Shown here piece after piece: positions 21,667 to 55,071 of a DNA stretch of 64,000 nt. The translations under genes were made by a program, and so were the position numbers. Location of the stretch: the NCBI RefSeq assembly GCF_003334765.1, contig NZ_QOWT01000008.1. One strand, given 5' to 3'. Position 1 is the first letter of the stretch, and every line of letters begins with the position of its first letter. Below the pieces are notes generated by a model. That model saw only the letters and a program-made list of their open reading frames with translations, searched no databases and was not told the DNA's origin. This DNA comes from Escherichia coli (GTDB lineage: Bacteria; Pseudomonadota; Gammaproteobacteria; Enterobacterales; Enterobacteriaceae).

Positions 21667-23178
21667 ATGTTCACGGCAACAGAGGCAGTCCCGGTAGCAA
21701 AAGTGGTGGCAGGAAATAAGCGTTATCCCGGCGTCGTTGCGCTGGATAACGTTAACTTCACGCTCAATAAAGGCGAAGTTCGTGCGCTGTTAGGTAAAAA
21801 CGGCGCGGGCAAATCGACTCTCATTCGAATGCTTACCGGCAGCGAACGCCCGGATAGCGGTGATATCTGGATTGGCGAGACGCGACTGGAAGGTGACGAA
21901 GCTACGCTGACTCGCCGTGCCGCTGAACTGGGGGTGCGCGCGGTTTATCAGGAGTTAAGTCTGGTGGAAGGGCTGACAGTGGCGGAAAACCTCTGCCTCG
22001 GTCAGTGGCCCCGCCGCAACGGCATGATTGATTACCTGCAAATGGCGCAGGATGCCCAACGTTGCTTACAGGCGCTGGGCGTTGACGTTAGTCCTGAACA
22101 ACTTGTTTCAACGCTAAGCCCGGCGCAAAAGCAGCTGGTGGAAATTGCGCGGGTGATGAAGGGCGAGCCGCGCGTGGTCATTCTTGATGAACCTACCAGT
22201 TCGCTTGCGAGTGCGGAAGTTGAACTGGTGATCAGCGCGGTGAAAAAGATGTCGGCACTGGGCGTGGCGGTGATTTATGTCAGCCACCGGATGGAAGAAA
22301 TTCGCCGCATTGCCTCCTGTGCCACCGTTATGCGCGATGGTCAGGTGGCGGGCGATGTGATGCTCGAAAACACCTCCACGCATCATATTGTGTCGCTGAT
22401 GCTCGGGCGCGATCACGTTGATATTGCGCCGGTAGCCCCTCAGGAAATTGTGGATCAGGCCGTGCTGGAAGTCCGTGCGTTACGCCATAAGCCCAAGCTG
22501 GAGGATATCAGTTTTACGCTACGTCGTGGCGAAGTGCTCGGCATTGCTGGTCTGCTGGGGGCAGGGCGCAGTGAATTGCTGAAGGCGATTGTTGGGCTGG
22601 AGGAGTATGAACAGGGCGAAATTGTTATCAACGGCGAGAAAATCACGCGCCCCGATTACGGCGACATGCTGAAACGCGGCATTGGCTATACGCCAGAAAA
22701 CCGCAAAGAAGCGGGGATCATTCCCTGGTTGGGCGTTGACGAAAATACAGTGCTGACCAATCGGCAAAAAATCAGCGCCAACGGTGTGCTGCAATGGTCC
22801 ACCATCCGCCGCCTGACCGAAGAGGTGATGCAGCGGATGACGGTCAAGGCCGCCAGTAGCGAAACACCCATCGGCACGCTTTCTGGTGGCAATCAGCAAA
22901 AAGTGGTGATCGGTCGTTGGGTCTATGCTGCCAGCCAGATTTTGTTGCTCGACGAGCCAACGCGCGGCGTCGATATCGAAGCCAAACAGCAGATTTACCG
23001 TATTGTCCGTGAGCTGGCTGCCGAAGGAAAAAGCGTGGTGTTTATCTCCAGTGAAGTGGAGGAGTTGCCGCTGGTGTGTGACCGCATCCTGTTATTACAG
23101 CACGGCACGTTCTCGCAGGAGTTTCACGCTCCGGTCAATGTGGATGAGCTGATGTCCGCCATTCTGTCTGTGCACTGA
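21667..23178 (+). CDS. yphE: ABC sugar transporter ATP-binding protein YphE (duplicated ABC domain)
   Basis: ORF 21667..23178; Walker A GKNGAGKST, ABC signature LSGGNQQK, two ABC halves. Confidence 0.85.
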   Translation: MFTATEAVPVAKVVAGNKRYPGVVALDNVNFTLNKGEVRALLGKNGAGKSTLIRMLTGSERPDSGDIWIGETRLEGDEATLTRRAAELGVRAVYQELSLVEGLTVAENLCLGQWPRRNGMIDYLQMAQDAQRCLQALGVDVSPEQLVSTLSPAQKQLVEIARVMKGEPRVVILDEPTSSLASAEVELVISAVKKMSALGVAVIYVSHRMEEIRRIASCATVMRDGQVAGDVMLENTSTHHIVSLMLGRDHVDIAPVAPQEIVDQAVLEVRALRHKPKLEDISFTLRRGEVLGIAGLLGAGRSELLKAIVGLEEYEQGEIVINGEKITRPDYGDMLKRGIGYTPENRKEAGIIPWLGVDENTVLTNRQKISANGVLQWSTIRRLTEEVMQRMTVKAASSETPIGTLSGGNQQKVVIGRWVYAASQILLLDEPTRGVDIEAKQQIYRIVRELAAEGKSVVFISSEVEELPLVCDRILLLQHGTFSQEFHAPVNVDELMSAILSVH

Positions 23179-37446: not shown

Positions 37447-37634
<188 letters not shown>

Positions 37635-43200: not shown

Positions 43201-43401
43201 ATGGGACTTAAGTGGACCGATAGCCGCGAAATTGGCGAAGCACTGTACGATGCGTATCCCGATCTTGATCCGAAAACGGTTCGATTCACCGATATGCATC
43301 AGTGGATTTGCGATCTGGAAGATTTCGACGACGACCCGCAGGCATCCAACGAGAAAATCCTCGAAGCGATTTTGTTAGTCTGGCTGGACGAGGCCGAATA
43401 A
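43201..43401 (+). CDS. iscX: Fe-S assembly accessory protein IscX (YfhJ)
   Basis: ORF 43201..43401, 66 aa, acidic. Confidence 0.9.
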
Positions 43402-45003: not shown

Positions 45004-45780
45004 ATGTCCGAAACAAAAAACGAACTTGAAGACCTGCTGGAAAAAGCAGCAACTGAACCGGCGCACCGCCCGGCCTTTTTCCGTACTCTACTGGAATCCA
45101 CCGTCTGGGTGCCTGGTACGGCGGCGCAGGGCGAGGCTGTGGTTGAAGATAGCGCGCTTGATTTACAGCACTGGGAAAAAGAAGACGGCACCAGCGTCAT
45201 TCCTTTTTTCACCTCGTTAGAAGCACTTCAACAGGCGGTTGAAGACGAACAGGCATTTGTCGTAATGCCCGTTCGCACGCTGTTTGAGATGACACTTGGC
45301 GAAACGCTCTTCCTTAATGCCAAACTGCCAACCGGTAAAGAATTTATGCCGCGTGAAATCAGTTTGTTGATTGGTGAAGAGGGAAATCCGCTGAGCAGCC
45401 AGGAAATCCTGGAAGGCGGTGAATCGCTGATATTATCGGAAGTCGCAGAGCCGCCAGCACAAATGATTGATTCACTCACCACCTTATTTAAAACCATTAA
45501 GCCGGTGAAGCGTGCTTTTATTTGTTCAATTAAAGAGAACGAAGAGGCACAGCCTAATTTACTTATTGGCATTGAAGCCGATGGTGATATCGAAGAAATT
45601 ATTCAGGCGACGGGAAGTGTAGCGACCGATACATTACCTGGCGATGAACCAATCGATATTTGTCAGGTGAAAAAAGGGGAAAAAGGAATTAGCCACTTTA
45701 TTACCGAACATATTGCGCCATTCTATGAACGTCGCTGGGGTGGTTTTTTGCGTGACTTTAAACAGAATCGGATAATCTAA
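45004..45780 (+). CDS. sseB: SseB (enhanced serine sensitivity protein B)
   Basis: ORF 44995..45780, start MSETKNELEDLL at 45004, 258 aa. Confidence 0.85.
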   Translation: MSETKNELEDLLEKAATEPAHRPAFFRTLLESTVWVPGTAAQGEAVVEDSALDLQHWEKEDGTSVIPFFTSLEALQQAVEDEQAFVVMPVRTLFEMTLGETLFLNAKLPTGKEFMPREISLLIGEEGNPLSSQEILEGGESLILSEVAEPPAQMIDSLTTLFKTIKPVKRAFICSIKENEEAQPNLLIGIEADGDIEEIIQATGSVATDTLPGDEPIDICQVKKGEKGISHFITEHIAPFYERRWGGFLRDFKQNRII

Positions 45781-45783
45781 AAT

Positions 45784-45804
45784 ATGCCGCCCAAAGGGCG
45801 GCAT
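45784..45804. terminator. bidirectional hairpin terminator at sseB 3' end
   Basis: atgccgccc-aaa-gggcggcat; U-rich tract on the minus strand (atttta) and weaker on plus. Confidence 0.55.
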
Positions 45805-45813
45805 TCGGGCTTA

Positions 45814-45936
45814 CTTGCTGCTCTGAAGGTTGTTAACCACCAGTAAATTGTCGCCGGAGAGACTCCGGTTATTATTTACCTCGGTTAACAGCGCACCAGA
45901 AACAATAAGTACGATACAAAAGCACCGTATCTTCAT
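45814..45936 (-). CDS. candidate small ORF, 40 aa (MKIRCFCIVLIVSGALLTEVNNNRSLSGDNLLVVNNLQSSK), hydrophobic N-terminal segment
   Basis: ATG 24 nt downstream of the 24-aa ORF stop, preceded by hairpin tgcggtc...gaccgca, no clear SD; inside putative RyfA-like transcript. Confidence 0.3.
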
Positions 45937-45960
45937 TGTGCGGTCCATGCGAAGACCGCA

Positions 45961-46035
45961 TCACGACAGCACCACTGGCGATATTGCCGCGATAGCAAGC
46001 GCTGTGAAACACCTGCATTTACGGCCACGGAACAT
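45961..46035 (-). CDS. candidate small ORF, 24 aa (MFRGRKCRCFTALAIAAISPVVLS), basic N-terminus then hydrophobic tail
   Basis: ATG preceded by AGGAAAGG Shine-Dalgarno; inside putative RyfA-like transcript; not in the 60-aa-minimum ORF track. Confidence 0.3.
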   Translation of the reverse strand: MFRGRKCRCFTALAIAAISPVVLS

Positions 46036-46160
46036 CCTTTCCTAAAGCCAGCGCCCGTTTGCGAGACGGCGGAAAGGGCCGCAGTGGATAATACACTAAC
46101 AGAACAATAATAACTCTCTTTTGCTTGACAAAAAGAGAGTTACTGGCGAGTATTGTCTCC

Positions 46161-46258
46161 GCTGAGACGCGCTTGCATTACTACGGTAATACAACCTGCT
46201 GGAAAGGCCGCGAACCGGACCAGCAACAAAAAACCGCCTGATTTTGGCGGTTTTTTGT
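46161..46258 (+). ncRNA. candidate short sRNA from module A (about 100 nt)
   Basis: perfect -35 TTGACA (46125-46130), 17-bp spacer, weak -10 gagtat (46148-46153), intrinsic terminator 46229-46258; promoter block conserved in module B. Confidence 0.25.
46229..46258. terminator. bidirectional rho-independent terminator (module A)
   Basis: aaaaaaccgcc-tgatttt-ggcggtttttt with U-tracts on both strands. Confidence 0.6.
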
Positions 46259-46481
46259 TTTTTAAAGGAAAGTGAATTTACATGTTTAAGTAATATCTTT
46301 TACCGGTTAGAATTTTTAATTTTGAGCAGGATTTGTTTATATTTGTCTGAATTCGGACTAATAAGCCAGGTTATTTTATTACCGAACACGGCGGAAAGGG
46401 CCGGTGTCGATAATACGCTAAATAAACAATAATTACTCTCTTTTGCTTGACAAAAAGAGAGTTACTGGTGAGTATTGTTTT

Positions 46482-46586
46482 GCTGTGAAGCACCTGCGTT
46501 GCTCATGTAACACAAGTCAACCTGCTGGAAAGGCCGCGAACCAGACTAGCAATAAAAAACCGCCAAATTCGGCGGTTTTTTATTGC
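46482..46586 (+). ncRNA. candidate short sRNA from module B (about 105 nt), sibling of module A sRNA
   Basis: TTGACA (46447-46452), 17-bp spacer, gagtat (46470-46475), terminator 46553-46586 (shared with sseA on the other strand). Confidence 0.25.
46553..46586. terminator. bidirectional rho-independent terminator (module B; also terminates sseA)
   Basis: aaaaaaccgcc-aaattc-ggcggtttttt. Confidence 0.6.
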
Positions 46587-47649: not shown

Positions 47650-50600
47650 ATGAAAAAGTTACGCGTAGCCGCCTGCATGCTAATGCTGGCGCTGGCAGGG
47701 TGCGACAACAACGATAACGCGCCAACAGCGGTGAAAAAAGATGCGCCTTCTGAAGTTACTAAAGCGGCCTCTTCAGAAAACGCGAGTTCAGCAAAACTCT
47801 CCGTGCCGGAGAGACAAAAACTGGCCCAACAGAGTGCCGGTAAGGTGCTGACATTGCTGGATCTCTCTGAAGTCCAACTTGATGGTGCAGCCACGCTGGT
47901 GCTGACGTTCTCCATCCCTCTCGACCCGGATCAGGATTTCTCACGCGTTATTCATGTCGTCGATAAAAAAAGCGGCAAAGTGGATGGTGCCTGGGAGCTG
48001 TCAGATAATCTTAAAGAGTTACGTTTACGCCACCTCGAACCGAAACGTGATTTGATCGTTACTATTGGCAAGGAGGTCAAAGCACTCAACAACGCAACCT
48101 TCAGTAAAGATTACGAAAAAACTATAACTACCCGCGACATCCAACCCAGCGTCGGTTTTGCCAGCCGTGGTTCGCTGCTGCCTGGCAAAGTCGTTGAAGG
48201 GCTGCCGGTAATGGCGCTCAACGTTAATAATGTCGATGTTAACTTCTTCCGCGTTAAGCCAGAATCTCTGCCAGCATTCATTAGCCAATGGGAATACCGC
48301 AATTCGCTGGCGAACTGGCAGTCAGACAAACTGCTGCAGATGGCGGATCTGGTCTACACCGGACGGTTTGATCTCAATCCTGCGCGTAACACCCGTGAAA
48401 AATTATTGCTGCCGCTGGGCGATATCAAACCGCTTCAGCAGGCGGGCGTGTATCTGGCTGTGATGAATCAGGCTGGACGTTACGATTACAGTAATCCCGC
48501 GACGCTGTTTACGTTAAGTGATATCGGCGTTTCAGCTCACCGTTATCACAATCGTCTGGATATCTTTACCCAAAGTCTGGAAAACGGCGCGGCCCAGCAA
48601 GGAATTGAAGTCTCTTTATTAAATGAGAAAGGGCAGACTCTGACTCAGGCAACCAGTGACGCTCAGGGGCATGTGCAGCTGGAAAATGATAAAAACGCGC
48701 ATTACTGTTGGCGCGTAAAGACGGTCAGACAACGCTACTCGATTTAAAACTTCCGGCGCTGGACTTAGCAGAATTTAACATTGCTGGCGCGCCAGGCTAT
48801 AGCAAACAGTTTTTCATGTTTGGCCCACGCGATCTTTATCGCCCAGGTGAAACGGTAATCCTCAATGGTTTGCTGCGTGATGCAGACGGTAAAGCGTTGC
48901 CCAATCAACCCATCAAGTTAGACGTGATTAAACCCGATGGGCAGGTACTCAGGAGCGTCGTTAGTCAGCCGGAGAATGGCCTCTACCACTTTACCTGGCC
49001 ACTCGATAGCAATGCGGCAACCGGTATGTGGCATATTCGCGCTAACACGGGCGATAATCAGTATCGGATGTGGGATTTCCACGTCGAAGATTTTATGCCA
49101 GAGCGCATGGCGCTGAATCTGACCGGTGAGAAAACCCCGCTAACGCCGAAAGATGAAGTGAAATTCTCCGTGGTGGGGTACTACCTGTATGGTGCACCTG
49201 CTAATGGTAATACTTTGCAAGGGCAACTTTTCCTGCGCCCACTGCGTGAAGCTGTGTCAGCCTTACCTGGTTTTGAATTCGGCGATATAGCTGCCGAAAA
49301 TCTTTCCCGCACGCTGGATGAAGTTCAGTTGACGCTGGATGATAAAGGGCGCGGCGAAGTTTCTACAGAAAGCCAGTGGAAGGAAACGCATTCCCCATTA
49401 CAGGTTATTTTCCAGGGTAGTTTGCTGGAATCGGGCGGTCGCCCGGTGACGCGCCGCGCTGAGCAGGCTATCTGGCCTGCCGATGCATTGCCGGGGATCC
49501 GTCCGCAGTTCGCCTCGAAATCGGTTTACGATTATCGTACTGACAGCACGGTGAAACAGCCCATTGTTGATGAAGGCAGTAACGCCGCTTTTGACATCGT
49601 TTATAGCGATGCGCAAGGCGTGAAAAAAGCCGTGTCGGGCTTGCAGGTGCGCCTGATTCGCGAACGCCGCGATTACTACTGGAACTGGTCAGAAGATGAA
49701 GGCTGGCAGTCACAGTTTGATCAAAAAGATCTGATCGAAAATGAACAAACTCTGGATCTGAAAGCGGACGAAACCGGCAAGGTCAGTTTTCCGGTAGAGT
49801 GGGGCGCTTATCGTCTGGAAGTCAAAGCGCCGAATGAAGCGGTCAGTAGTGTTCGTTTCTGGGCTGGCTATAGCTGGCAGGACAACAGCGACGGTAGCGG
49901 CGCAGTGCGACCCGACCGTGTCACGCTGAAACTGGATAAAGCCAGTTATCGCCCTGGCGACACCATTAAGTTGCATATCGCCGCGCCAACGGCGGGTAAA
50001 GGTTATGCGATGGTCGAGTCCAGTGAAGGGCCGCTGTGGTGGCAAGAGATTGATGTTCGGGCTCAAGGGCTGGATCTGACGATTCCGGTCGATAAAACCT
50101 GGAATCGTCATGATCTGTATTTAAGTACGCTGGTGGTACGTCCTGGCGATAAATCTCGCTCCGCGACGCCAAAACGCGCGGTTGGTGTGTTGCATCTGCC
50201 GCTTGGCGATGAAAACCGTCGCCTCGATCTGGCGCTGGAAACACCAGCAAAAATGCGTCCCAATCAACCATTAACCGTGAAAATTAAAGCCAGCACTAAA
50301 AATGGCGAGAAGCCTAAACAGGTGAATGTGCTGGTGTCTGCCGTTGATAGTGGTGTGCTGAATATTACTGACTACGTCACGCCAGATCCGTGGCAGGCGT
50401 TCTTTGGTCAGAAACGCTATGGCGCAGACATTTACGATATTTACGGTCAGGTTATTGAAGGTCAGGGGCGTCTGGCAGCTCTGCGTTTCGGTGGCGATGG
50501 TGATGAGCTGAAACGTGGTGGTAAACCGCCGGTCAATCACGTCAATATTGTCGTGCAGCAGGCGCTGCCGGTAACGCTCAACGAACAGGGCGAAGGCTCG

Positions 50601-52610
50601 GTTACACTGCCGATTGGCGATTTTAACGGTGAATTGCGCGTCATGGCGCAAGCCTGGACGGCAGATGACTTCGGTAGCAACGAAAGTAAAGTGATAGTTG
50701 CCGCACCGGTGATTGCTGAACTGAACATGCCGCGCTTTATGGCGAGTGGCGATACCTCGCGTCTGACGCTGGATATCACTAATCTTACCGATAAACCGCA
50801 AAAACTGAACGTTGCCCTGACCGCCAGTGGTTTGCTTGAACTGGTCAGCGATTCACCCGCAGCCGTTGAATTAGCGCCAGGTGTGCGTACTACGCTGTTT
50901 ATCCCGGTGCGAGCATTGCCGGGTTATGGCGATGGAGAAATTCAGGCCACCATTAGCGGGTTAGCGTTACCGGGTGAAACCGTTGCCGATCAGCATAAGC
51001 AGTGGAAAATCGGCGTCCGTCCGGCGTTCCCGGCACAAACGGTTAATTACGGTACGGCGTTACAGCCTGGTGAGACATGGGCGATTCCGGCGGATGGATT
51101 GCAAAACTTCTCGCCTGTTACGCTGGAAGGGCAATTGTTGTTGAGCGGCAAACCACCGCTGAACATCGCACGTTATATCAAAGAGTTAAAAGCGTATCCG
51201 TACGGCTGTCTTGAGCAAACCGCCAGCGGCCTGTTTCCGTCACTTTATACCAACGCAGCCCAACTGCAGGCGTTGGGCATCAAAGGCGACAGTGATGAGA
51301 AACGCCGTGCATCGGTCGATATCGGCATTTCCCGTTTGCTGCAAATGCAACGTGATAACGGCGGCTTTGCGCTGTGGGATAAAAACGGTGACGAAGAGTA
51401 CTGGCTGACGGCTTACGTGATGGATTTCCTGGTCCGCGCAGGCGAACAGGGTTACAGCGTGCCGACAGACGCCATTAACCGGGGTAATGAGCGTCTGCTG
51501 CGCTATTTACAAGATCCGGGCATGATGTCGATCCCGTACGCGGATAATCTCAAAGCCAGTAAATTCGCCGTACAGTCTTACGCTGCGCTGGTGTTGGCCC
51601 GTCAGCAAAAGGCTCCGCTGGGTGCGCTGCGTGAAATCTGGGAGCATCGTGCAGATGCCGCTTCTGGTTTACCGCTGCTGCAACTTGGCGTTGCGCTGAA
51701 AACCATGGGTGATGCGACGCGTGGTGAAGAAGCGATTGCGCTGGCGCTGAAAACGCCGCGTAATAGTGATGAGCGGATATGGCTGGGTGATTACGGTAGT
51801 TCACTGCGCGACAACGCGTTAATGCTCTCCTTGCTGGAAGAAAATAAACTGCTACCCGATGAGCAGTACACTTTGCTGAACACACTTTCGCAGCAGGCGT
51901 TTGGTGAACGCTGGCTATCGACGCAGGAAAGTAACGCGTTGTTCCTGGCTGCCCGTACGATTCAGGATTTACCCGGTAAATGGCAGGCGCAAACCTCTTT
52001 CTCAGCTGAGCAGCTGACAGGCGAGAAAGCGCAAAACAGCAATCTGAATAGCGATCAACTTGTCACCTTGCAGGTGAGCAACAGTGGCGATCAGCCGTTA
52101 TGGTTGCGTATGGATGCCAGCGGTTATCCGCAATCCGCACCTTTACCGGCGAACAATGTGCTGCAAATCGAGCGTCATATTCTTGGTACTGATGGTAAGA
52201 GCAAATCGCTGGACTCGTTACGTAGCGGCGATCTGGTGCTGGTGTGGTTGCAGGTAAAAGCCAGTAACAGCGTGCCGGATGCGTTAGTCGTGGATCTGCT
52301 GCCTGCGGGTCTGGAACTGGAAAACCAGAATCTGGCGAACGGTAGCGCCAGCCTGGAGCAAAGTGGTGGCGAAGTGCAGAACTTACTGAACCAGATGCAG
52401 CAGGCGAGCATTAAGCACATTGAGTTCCGTGACGATCGCTTTGTGGCGGCGGTTGCCGTTGATGAATACCAACCGGTAACGCTGGTGTATCTGGCGCGGG
52501 CGGTGACGCCGGGAACGTATCAGGTACCGCAACCGATGGTGGAATCAATGTATGTTCCCCAATGGCGGGCGACCGGCGCGGCTGAAGATCTGCTGATTGT
52601 CAGACCGTAA
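47650..52610 (+). pseudogene. yfhM: alpha-2-macroglobulin family lipoprotein YfhM with interrupted reading frame (apparent 1-nt deletion near 48697-48708), or a sequencing error
   Basis: two overlapping ORFs 47650..48747 (365 aa) and 48708..52610 (1300 aa) in different frames together cover about 1653 aa; lipoprotein signal peptide LAGC at N-terminus. Confidence 0.6.
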
Positions 52611-54923
52611 ATGCCTCGCTTGTTAACCAAACGCGGCTGCTGGATAACGTTGGCAGCCGCGCCCTTTCTCCTTTTTCTTGCAGCGTGGGGAGCAGATAAA
52701 CTCTGGCCTCTACCGCTGCATGAAGTCAATCCCGCACGAGTGGTCGTGGCGCAGGATGGTACGCCGCTCTGGCGCTTCGCCGATGCTGACGGCATCTGGC
52801 GTTATCCGGTAACAATCGAAGATGTTTCTCCACGTTACCTTGAAGCGCTGATCAATTATGAAGATCGCTGGTTCTGGAAGCATCCGGGGGTGAATCCATT
52901 CTCGGTGGCGCGCGCAGCATGGCAAGATCTCACTTCGGGACGGGTTATTTCCGGTGGCAGCACGCTCACTATGCAGGTTGCTCGTCTGCTTGATCCTCAC
53001 CCCAAAACATTTGGCGGCAAAATTCGCCAGCTCTGGCGCGCGTTGCAACTGGAATGGCATCTGTCTAAGCGTGAAATTCTGACCTTGTATCTTAACCGCG
53101 CTCCGTTTGGCGGTACGTTGCAGGGGATCGGTGCGGCAAGTTGGGCTTATCTCGGAAAATCGCCTGCGAATTTAAGCTATTCCGAGGCGGCAATGCTGGC
53201 GGTTTTGCCGCAAGCGCCCAGCCGTCTTCGCCCGGATCGTTGGCCGGAGCGTGCCGAAGCCGCGCGTAATAAAGTGCTCGAACGGATGGCCGTGCAAGGT
53301 GTGTGGTCCCGTGAGCAGGTAAAAGAGTCAAGGGAAGAACCCATCTGGCTGGCCCCCCGACAAATGCCGCAACTGGCACCGCTGTTTTCGCGCATGATGC
53401 TCGGTAAAAGCAAAAGCGACAAAATCACTACTACGTTGGATGCCGGTCTTCAACGACGTCTGGAAGAACTGGCGCAAAACTGGAAAGGGCGGTTGCCACC
53501 GCGCAGCTCACTGGCGATGATCGTGGTTGATCATACCGATATGCGTGTTCGCGGCTGGGTGGGATCGGTTGATCTCAACGATGATTCACGCTTTGGTCAT
53601 GTTGATATGGTCAATTCGATCCGATCGCCAGGATCAGTGCTCAAACCGTTTGTTTATGGTCTGGCGCTGGATGAAGGCTTGATCCACCCGGCATCACTGC
53701 TGCAAGACGTCCCCCGGCGCACCGGTGATTATCGACCAGGTAACTTTGATAGCGGTTTTCATGGCCCGATCAGCATGAGCGAGGCGCTGGTGCGCTCGCT
53801 GAACTTACCTGCTGTGCAGGTGCTGGAAGCCTATGGACCGAAACGGTTTGCGGCAAAGTTACGCAATGTTGGATTGCCGTTATATTTGCCCAACGGTGCT
53901 GCGCCGAATCTTTCACTCATTCTCGGCGGCGCTGGTGCAAAACTGGAAGATATGGCGGCAGCGTATACCGCGTTTGCTCGCCACGGCAAGGCAGGCAAAT
54001 TGCGCTTACAGCCTGACGATCCGCTGCTTGAACGGCCTTTAATGTCGTCGGGGGCGGCGTGGATCATTCGCCGGATTATGGCTGATGAAGCGCAACCCTT
54101 GCCGGATAGTGCCTTGCCGCGCGTCGCCCCACTGGCATGGAAAACGGGCACCAGCTATGGCTATCGTGACGCCTGGGCGATTGGGGTTAACGCTCGCTAT
54201 GTCATTGGGATCTGGACTGGCAGACCGGACGGCACGCCCGTTGTTGGTCAGTTTGGCTTTGCCAGTGCCGTACCATTGTTGAATCAGGTCAATAATATCT
54301 TACTGTCGCGCAGTGCGAATCTGCCGGAAGACCCGCGCCCGAACTCAGTCACTCGTGGCGTTATCTGCTGGCCGGGCGGACAGTCTTTGCCGGAAGGTGA
54401 CGGTAACTGTCGCCGCCGCCTGGCAACCTGGCTGCTGGACGGGAGTCAGCCGCCAACTCTATTACTGCCGGAGCAGGAAGGCATTAATGGCATTCGTTTC
54501 CCCATCTGGCTGGATGAAAATGGCAAACGTGTTGCCGCTGATTGCCCGCAAGCGCGACAAGAAATGATAAATGTCTGGCCGCTACCGCTGGAACCCTGGC
54601 TGCCCGCATCAGAACGTCGCGCTGTGCGCTTACCACCGGCCTCGACAAGTTGCCCGCCATACGGTCACGATGCCCAGCTCCCGCTGCAGCTGACAGGCGT
54701 TCGCGATGGCGCGATTATTAAACGTTTACCGGGCGCAGCGGAAGCGACTTTGCCGTTGCAATCAAGTGGAGGGGCAGGTGAACGCTGGTGGTTTCTGAAT
54801 GGCGAACCGTTAACTGAACGCGGGCGCAACGTGACCCTGCATTTGACGGATAAAGGTGATTATCAATTGCTGGTGATGGATGACGTGGGGCAAATCGCGA
54901 CAGTGAAATTTGTCATGCAATAG
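52611..54923 (+). CDS. pbpC: penicillin-binding protein 1C (bifunctional transglycosylase/transpeptidase-like), 770 aa
   Basis: ORF 52611..54923; GT51 glycosyltransferase motifs in N-terminal half; ATG directly abuts yfhM stop. Confidence 0.9.
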   Translation: MPRLLTKRGCWITLAAAPFLLFLAAWGADKLWPLPLHEVNPARVVVAQDGTPLWRFADADGIWRYPVTIEDVSPRYLEALINYEDRWFWKHPGVNPFSVARAAWQDLTSGRVISGGSTLTMQVARLLDPHPKTFGGKIRQLWRALQLEWHLSKREILTLYLNRAPFGGTLQGIGAASWAYLGKSPANLSYSEAAMLAVLPQAPSRLRPDRWPERAEAARNKVLERMAVQGVWSREQVKESREEPIWLAPRQMPQLAPLFSRMMLGKSKSDKITTTLDAGLQRRLEELAQNWKGRLPPRSSLAMIVVDHTDMRVRGWVGSVDLNDDSRFGHVDMVNSIRSPGSVLKPFVYGLALDEGLIHPASLLQDVPRRTGDYRPGNFDSGFHGPISMSEALVRSLNLPAVQVLEAYGPKRFAAKLRNVGLPLYLPNGAAPNLSLILGGAGAKLEDMAAAYTAFARHGKAGKLRLQPDDPLLERPLMSSGAAWIIRRIMADEAQPLPDSALPRVAPLAWKTGTSYGYRDAWAIGVNARYVIGIWTGRPDGTPVVGQFGFASAVPLLNQVNNILLSRSANLPEDPRPNSVTRGVICWPGGQSLPEGDGNCRRRLATWLLDGSQPPTLLLPEQEGINGIRFPIWLDENGKRVAADCPQARQEMINVWPLPLEPWLPASERRAVRLPPASTSCPPYGHDAQLPLQLTGVRDGAIIKRLPGAAEATLPLQSSGGAGERWWFLNGEPLTERGRNVTLHLTDKGDYQLLVMDDVGQIATVKFVMQ

Positions 54924-55071
54924 TCTGTTTTGTCCCTGATTGTTGCTAAAACTCATTTTATTTAAAAAAAATGTTACCTTCATCAATAGTCAACGGCCCT
55001 GTTGCTCATTATAATCCGCGCCATCTCGTACGCTGGTACAGACAACAACAGAACAATTTACAGAGGTAAAA

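Follow-up and report, generated by a model that had tools for sequence, protein, structure and literature searches.

The stretch of DNA analysed here, hereafter the window, comprises 64,000 nucleotides of an Escherichia coli genome and carries a region of K-12 type, running from yfhL through the hca, yph and isc genes, pepB, sseB, sseA, yfhM, pbpC and ndk to der. In the mechanical ORF list of the window yfhM is covered by two overlapping ORFs whose frames are offset by one, with a third ORF, pbpC, following directly (Table 1). A first-pass annotation had described two ORFs in different frames across this gene and had quoted the ends of their products; the ORF list gives exactly both, and the translations agree with the quoted residues, ENDKNAHYCWRVKTVRQRYSI before the stop of the upstream frame and KRALLLARKDGQTTLL in the downstream one. 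At greater length, the upstream translation ends in HVQLENDKNAHYCWRVKTVRQRYSI followed by the stop, and the downstream frame reads K, two stops and then KRALLLARKDGQTTLLDL. The identification of the gene as yfhM and of its neighbour as pbpC was likewise correct, as judged by the annotation of K-12 and of the carrier genomes described below and by the alignment. All of the 5,426 complete RefSeq E. coli genomes match a segment of 601 bases around the site, and the feature there is always annotated as ‘yfhM: alpha2-macroglobulin’.

Table 1. Positions in the window of the two yfhM frames, the lesion, the encoded landmarks and pbpC.
Feature	Position	Strand	Description and basis
yfhM (ECAM, bacterial alpha-2-macroglobulin), whole pseudogene	47650..52610	+	4,961 nt, against 4,962 nt in K-12
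Upstream ORF	47650..48747	+	365 aa, ATG start; ORF list
Signal peptide and lipobox (LAGC, Cys18)	in upstream ORF 47650..48747	+	N-terminus MKKLRVAACMLMLALAGC...
Deletion junction	48699..48700	+	one G of GG in GCG-GCA (Ala350-Ala351) gone; five-way alignment
yfhM remainder, native residues 351-1653, -1 frame	48699..52610	+	mechanical ORF begins at TTG 48708
Downstream ORF	48708..52610	+	1300 aa, TTG start; ORF list
Premature stop TAA, shifted frame	48745..48747	+	ORF and translation
Disordered stretch in bait region (Arg923-Leu942 of ECAM, 20 residues)	50415..50474	+	translates to RYGADIYDIYGQVIEGQGRL; downstream frame
Thioester motif CLEQ (Cys1187-Gln1190)	51207..51218	+	downstream frame
pbpC (PBP1c), intact; third ORF, directly after yfhM	52611..54923	+	770 aa; ATG directly after yfhM TAA (CCG TAA ATG); ORF list

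A five-way alignment of the lesion (the window, K-12 MG1655 and three carrier genomes) places the cause of the split in a single absent G, AACGCGGCATTACTG in K-12 MG1655 corresponding to AACGCGCATTACTG in the window. GCGGCA is reduced to GCGCA, and where K-12 reads AAC GCG GCA TTA CTG (N-A-A-L-L) the window reads AAC GCG CAT TAC TG. The missing G is the sole intragenic difference of the window from K-12 and from SHP24, a genome which does not carry the deletion; once it is put back, the ORF spans 1,653 amino acids, its DNA is 100% identical to yfhM of K-12 MG1655 (4,962/4,962 nt) and it encodes the same 1,653-aa protein. Chance plays no part in this result, which compares the window directly with a reference. 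The proposal of the first-pass annotation that restoring a single base around 48697-48700 would give an intact protein of ~1653 aa was therefore borne out by the K-12 alignment, site, base and length all being exactly right. As no other base of the gene departs from K-12, its inactivation is evolutionarily recent.

The deleted G sits in a short inverted repeat rich in GC, ACGCG(G)C...GCGCGT, where it forms part of the left arm, and according to folding the deletion turns the predicted stem from 5+2 bp into 6 bp. An origin by quasi-palindrome correction was considered and rejected, the hairpin being weak and the change no clean templated correction.

ECAM possesses a signal peptide and a lipoprotein box (Table 1; PMC3328433) and is an inner-membrane-anchored periplasmic lipoprotein, in which cleavage of the bait region leads to trapping of the protease and its covalent capture via the thioester (PMC4498604; PMC3328433). 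The restored protein matches PDB entries 4rtd, 4ziq and 5a42 (‘lipoprotein YfhM’) with E=0, and the Salmonella homologue 4u48 is also matched. On the intact protein Pfam assigns bMG1 to residues 59-163, bMG2 to 169-287 and bMG3 to 289-381, so the break at residue 351 falls inside bMG3, the third MG domain, and the upstream ORF keeps bMG1 and bMG2 together with some two thirds of bMG3. Its product retains native residues 1-350, to which 15 out-of-frame residues (HYCWRVKTVRQRYSI) are added before the TAA stop. The downstream product of 1,300 aa, for which the Pfam families were taken from the identical product in the protein collection, holds MG2, bMG5, bMG6, A2M_BRD (the bait-region domain), A2M, TED_complement, CUB_A2MG and bMG10, and the disordered bait stretch and the thioester residues, Cys1187 and Gln1190 in ECAM numbering (PMC4498604), both fall in this frame, which has no signal peptide of its own.

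The attributes of a type I bacterial alpha-2-macroglobulin are thus nearly all encoded at the locus: a signal peptide followed by the lipobox cysteine, the MG series with bait-region domain, TED, CUB and C-terminal MG domain (across the two products together), the CxEQ thioester motif, here CLEQ, and juxtaposition of the gene to pbpC. The single uninterrupted ORF of ~1,653 aa is lacking; as the frame is broken at codon 351 and runs into the premature stop, the locus is filed as a pseudogene of the family and not as a functional member.

Among finished genomes the allele is rare. A 40-mer across the junction, which can seed only in genomes with the deletion, matches 3/5,426 complete E. coli genomes, and an 80-mer centred on the junction finds an exact match in the same three of the 5,426: H3 (NZ_CP028732.1; Mexico, faeces), HSP425 (NZ_CM136999.1; Brazil, urine) and AF58 (NZ_OZ547038.1; UK, blood culture), in each of which PGAP labels yfhM ‘frameshifted’. 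An exact look-up of the 365-aa truncated product in a collection of 15 billion proteins, which can find K-12-like N-termini only, returned calls on 361 contigs from NCBI, JGI/IMG, ENA and Logan, comprising both isolate and metagenome assemblies (ELF23564.1 of E. coli KTE161 is one example), and the product occurs in 513 blocks of the collection, draft isolates and gut metagenomes included, all with the same two-ORF layout. The flanking 81-mer is kept in very diverse strains, and every carrier found sits on a K-12-like haplotype; the carrier lineage is probably phylogroup A. Two marks of a frameshift pseudogene are present, namely a single indel relative to intact orthologues which leads to a premature stop, and the same lesion in independent assemblies (the three complete genomes and the 361 contigs or 513 blocks).

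The 90% cluster to which the truncated product belongs has 537 members of many lengths, including products of 346 aa and 359 aa on contigs of more than 4.6 Mb, of 401 aa on 11 contigs and of 488 aa on 10. In other strains yfhM may thus have suffered separate disruptions elsewhere in the gene, although some members of the cluster are merely partial genes at contig ends. In a metagenome contig from ENA (ERZ28755217, locus L018) which carries the same frameshift, a Mu-like element with HTH_Tnp_Mu_1/Mu-transpos_C and MuB-like genes interrupts the downstream part of yfhM from ~9478 onward (window-equivalent ~51127); with this prophage insertion the pseudogene has been inactivated a second time.

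The relationship of the window's strain to the carriers was examined in an alignment over 64 kb of six genomes: the window, K-12, SHP24, H3, HSP425 and AF58. Between the window and H3 there are 7 SNPs and a 91-bp indel, and the window is a fourth, distinct carrier genome, identical to none of H3, HSP425 and AF58. At position 43264 the window, H3 and the locus L015 hold the ancestral C, as do K-12 and SHP24, and HSP425, AF58 and the loci L016-L018 have the derived A in common; at position 22292 a G is common to HSP425 and AF58, the L016-L018 loci not reaching this far. Such nesting of SNPs among carriers is to be expected of an allele with one origin, passed on as the lineage diversified. Local diversity is too low (about 1 SNP per 10-60 kb) for further flanking DNA to be informative, and in the six-genome alignment no SNP other than the deletion itself sets all carriers apart from SHP24. 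A single origin of the deletion is likely, the sequences being consistent with a clade but not decisive.

Several other features of the window vary or are of structural interest. At 37470, in the iscR-trmJ intergenic region, a 91-bp unit is absent from the window and SHP24 and present in K-12, H3, HSP425 and AF58, a distribution which conflicts with that of the yfhM deletion and with a simple tree; the indel looks as though a REP/BIME-type repeat unit had been gained or lost, and units of the REP type tend to come and go repeatedly. The window itself starts inside an IS5 element (positions 1-81), bases 1-77 matching the 77 bp at the end of copies annotated ‘IS5-like element IS5 family transposase’. 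This element abuts TTAA in the shoB-yfhL intergenic region, where K-12, SHP24, H3, HSP425 and AF58 have no insertion; a different IS (ISKpn26, 87% identity) occupies the same place in three further complete genomes, which suggests an insertion hotspot. A SNP private to the window lies at 54964 in the pbpC-ndk intergenic region, 41 bp past the pbpC stop, with A in place of the T of the five compared genomes. Between sseB and sseA there is a direct repeat of ~190 bp (82.7% identity; ~46066-46256 and ~46388-46581), and in the same interval, adjoining the annotated small toxin gene timP, Rfam identifies ryfA (45779-46082, minus strand) and IS128 RNA (46214-46422, minus strand); the ryfA and IS128 loci appear to be partly paralogous.

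The first-pass annotation had left open whether the strain carries a pseudogene or the assembly a single-base error, and had proposed that an extra base in a reference alignment would point to the latter. The extra base is indeed there in K-12, but on its own it does not point to an assembly error, as the allele is real. If the strain's yfhM were truly intact and the window alone contained a sequencing or assembly error, the rest of the gene would be identical to K-12, as it is, and the extra G would be present in other genomes, as it is in 5,423/5,426 complete ones; however, the same junction is seen in three independent finished genomes from three countries and in hundreds of independent contigs from isolates and metagenomes, the carriers show the nested SNP structure described above and their haplotype is common to the window. 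Furthermore, the affected bases are a GG dinucleotide, and neither a long homopolymer nor a GATC or CCWGG (Dam/Dcm) motif is present there, so that a platform-specific systematic error is unlikely. An error confined to the window was rejected on account of the independent carriers (three complete genomes, 361 contigs) and is highly unlikely; the pseudogene is favoured. The deletion in the window is very probably real and inherited, the base call in this particular assembly resting on its agreement with the carrier lineage. A different means of rescuing an intact, full-length protein would be slippage, either by the ribosome (a -1 slip, programmed or leaky, at AAA-AAC, 48691-48696) or by RNA polymerase during transcription of the run of five A residues. 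The layout would permit it, as the frame would be regained by a -1 shift at any point from 48693 to 48744, and the hexamer AAAAAC lies just past the last stop of the -1 frame, the TAA at 48690-48692 (TGA and TAA together occupy 48687-48692); a ribosomal slip at AAA-AAC would give an A350R substitution and the gene would not be null. Against this, the heptamer T_AAA_AAC (48690-48696) matches X_XXY_YYZ at only 6/7 positions, the first X being wrong, and no other slippery heptamer candidate was found among the zero-frame codons from 48691 to 48744. The 73 nt downstream, folded in both the mutant and the K-12 form, are no more stable than shuffled sequences (minimum free energy -11.4 kcal/mol versus a shuffle mean of -14.1; z=+1.09, with 176/200 shuffles at least as stable), and no Shine-Dalgarno-like stimulator is visible upstream in the window sequence. 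The two-frame layout is missing from >99.9% of E. coli genomes (present in 3/5,426), so that it is a fresh mutation and no conserved recoding site, and a run of five A residues is too short for efficient slippage by RNA polymerase. None of the three hallmarks of programmed -1 frameshifting (heptamer, downstream structure, conserved layout) is found; with an incomplete heptamer, no stimulatory structure and no conservation of the layout, a programmed frameshift was rejected and restoration of the full-length protein by either kind of slippage is exceedingly improbable, although spontaneous slippage at trace level is compatible with the computed evidence.

The reading we prefer, at a probability of roughly 0.9, is that of an ordinary, recent, lineage-specific yfhM pseudogene arising from a real and inherited 1-bp deletion. 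A change from GG to G at codons 350/351, vertically inherited, would have made yfhM a pseudogene in a rare K-12-like lineage of E. coli which includes the window's strain. The deletion, the premature stop, the occurrence of the allele in many independent assemblies and the lack of recoding signals are all shown by the sequences. From the normal start this allele is predicted to give a 365-aa lipoprotein stub with bMG1, bMG2 and part of bMG3, ending in 15 missense residues, whilst the components of the protease trap (bait region, CLEQ thioester domain and C-terminal MG domain) are stranded in the other frame. Trap domains without an export signal would leave no functional periplasmic alpha-2-macroglobulin to be made, and it appears that the allele can export the N-terminal anchor domains only, with probable loss of YfhM protein and function.

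The consequences may extend to the neighbouring gene. The pbpC span shows no differences from K-12, and the gene is annotated WP_001137675.1 in K-12 and in all three complete carriers; no obvious Shine-Dalgarno sequence precedes its ATG. As this ATG abuts the yfhM stop and translation now ends 3.9 kb upstream, levels of PBP1c may drop. A polar effect of the frameshift on pbpC is plausible, expression being reduced either through lost translational coupling or through Rho-dependent polarity over ~3.9 kb of untranslated mRNA; given the apparent coupling of pbpC to yfhM, carriers may under-express PBP1c. The association of alpha-2-macroglobulin genes with pbpC has been described previously (PMC3328433).

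Whether the allele has simply decayed neutrally can also be debated. Inactivation of YfhM/PbpC might be advantageous, by saving cost or by altering the envelope in a host-associated niche, and the persistence of the allele and its spread to at least three countries, in faecal, urine and blood isolates and in metagenomes, would fit such an advantage, as would the other N-terminal fragments on long contigs in the 90% cluster (346, 359, 401 and 488 aa), which are compatible with independent disruptions, and the carrier contig with a second disruption by a Mu-like prophage downstream. Yet 3/5,426 complete genomes point neither to a sweep nor to convergence at the site, hitch-hiking in a successful clone accounts for the spread equally well, and the other truncated cluster members may be contig-end partials; selected loss is therefore unlikely. 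It is less probable again, and by our estimate most doubtful, that the allele is something other than a simple null, the exported 350-residue bMG1-bMG2 stub being functional or termination-reinitiation or a low-level -1 slip at AAA-AAC keeping the downstream frame and pbpC translated; in that event the YfhM/PBP1c module for envelope defence would have been rewired in this lineage and not simply lost, perhaps through selection in human-associated niches.

The window's strain should be annotated with one yfhM pseudogene and not with two separate genes, and it joins a small K-12-like carrier lineage known from human faeces, urine, blood and gut metagenomes, whose members probably lack the periplasmic protease trap. 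A joint role of ECAM and PBP1c in envelope defence and repair is a long-standing idea which is still unproven, and the carriers could serve as natural knock-outs for testing it. Beyond correct annotation the importance of the finding is small: the frameshift has already been flagged by PGAP/RefSeq in three genomes and is an ordinary finding, although a literature search on yfhM and ‘pseudogene’ returned nothing on this allele.

The overlap of the two frames bears a likeness to the dnaX-type A_AAA_AAG sites, in that the frames overlap, the overlap opens with an A-rich hexamer and the frame would be regained by shifting -1; in contrast to those sites, the yfhM heptamer is incomplete and is accompanied by neither a stimulatory structure nor conservation, so it does not belong to that class and gives no indication of functioning in the same manner. 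The comparison with ECAM/YfhM itself (4rtd, 4ziq, 5a42) is close, as the gene occupies the same locus between sseA and pbpC, the window's DNA differs by one base and the lipobox, MG domains, bait region and CLEQ motif are all encoded in the window too; however, the frame of the window's yfhM is broken at codon 351 and its trap domains cannot form part of an exported lipoprotein. Close too are the pseudogenes of H3, HSP425 and AF58, in which the junction and the ORF layout are identical to those of the window and the flanks are nearly so, with 1-2 SNPs in 12.6 kb.
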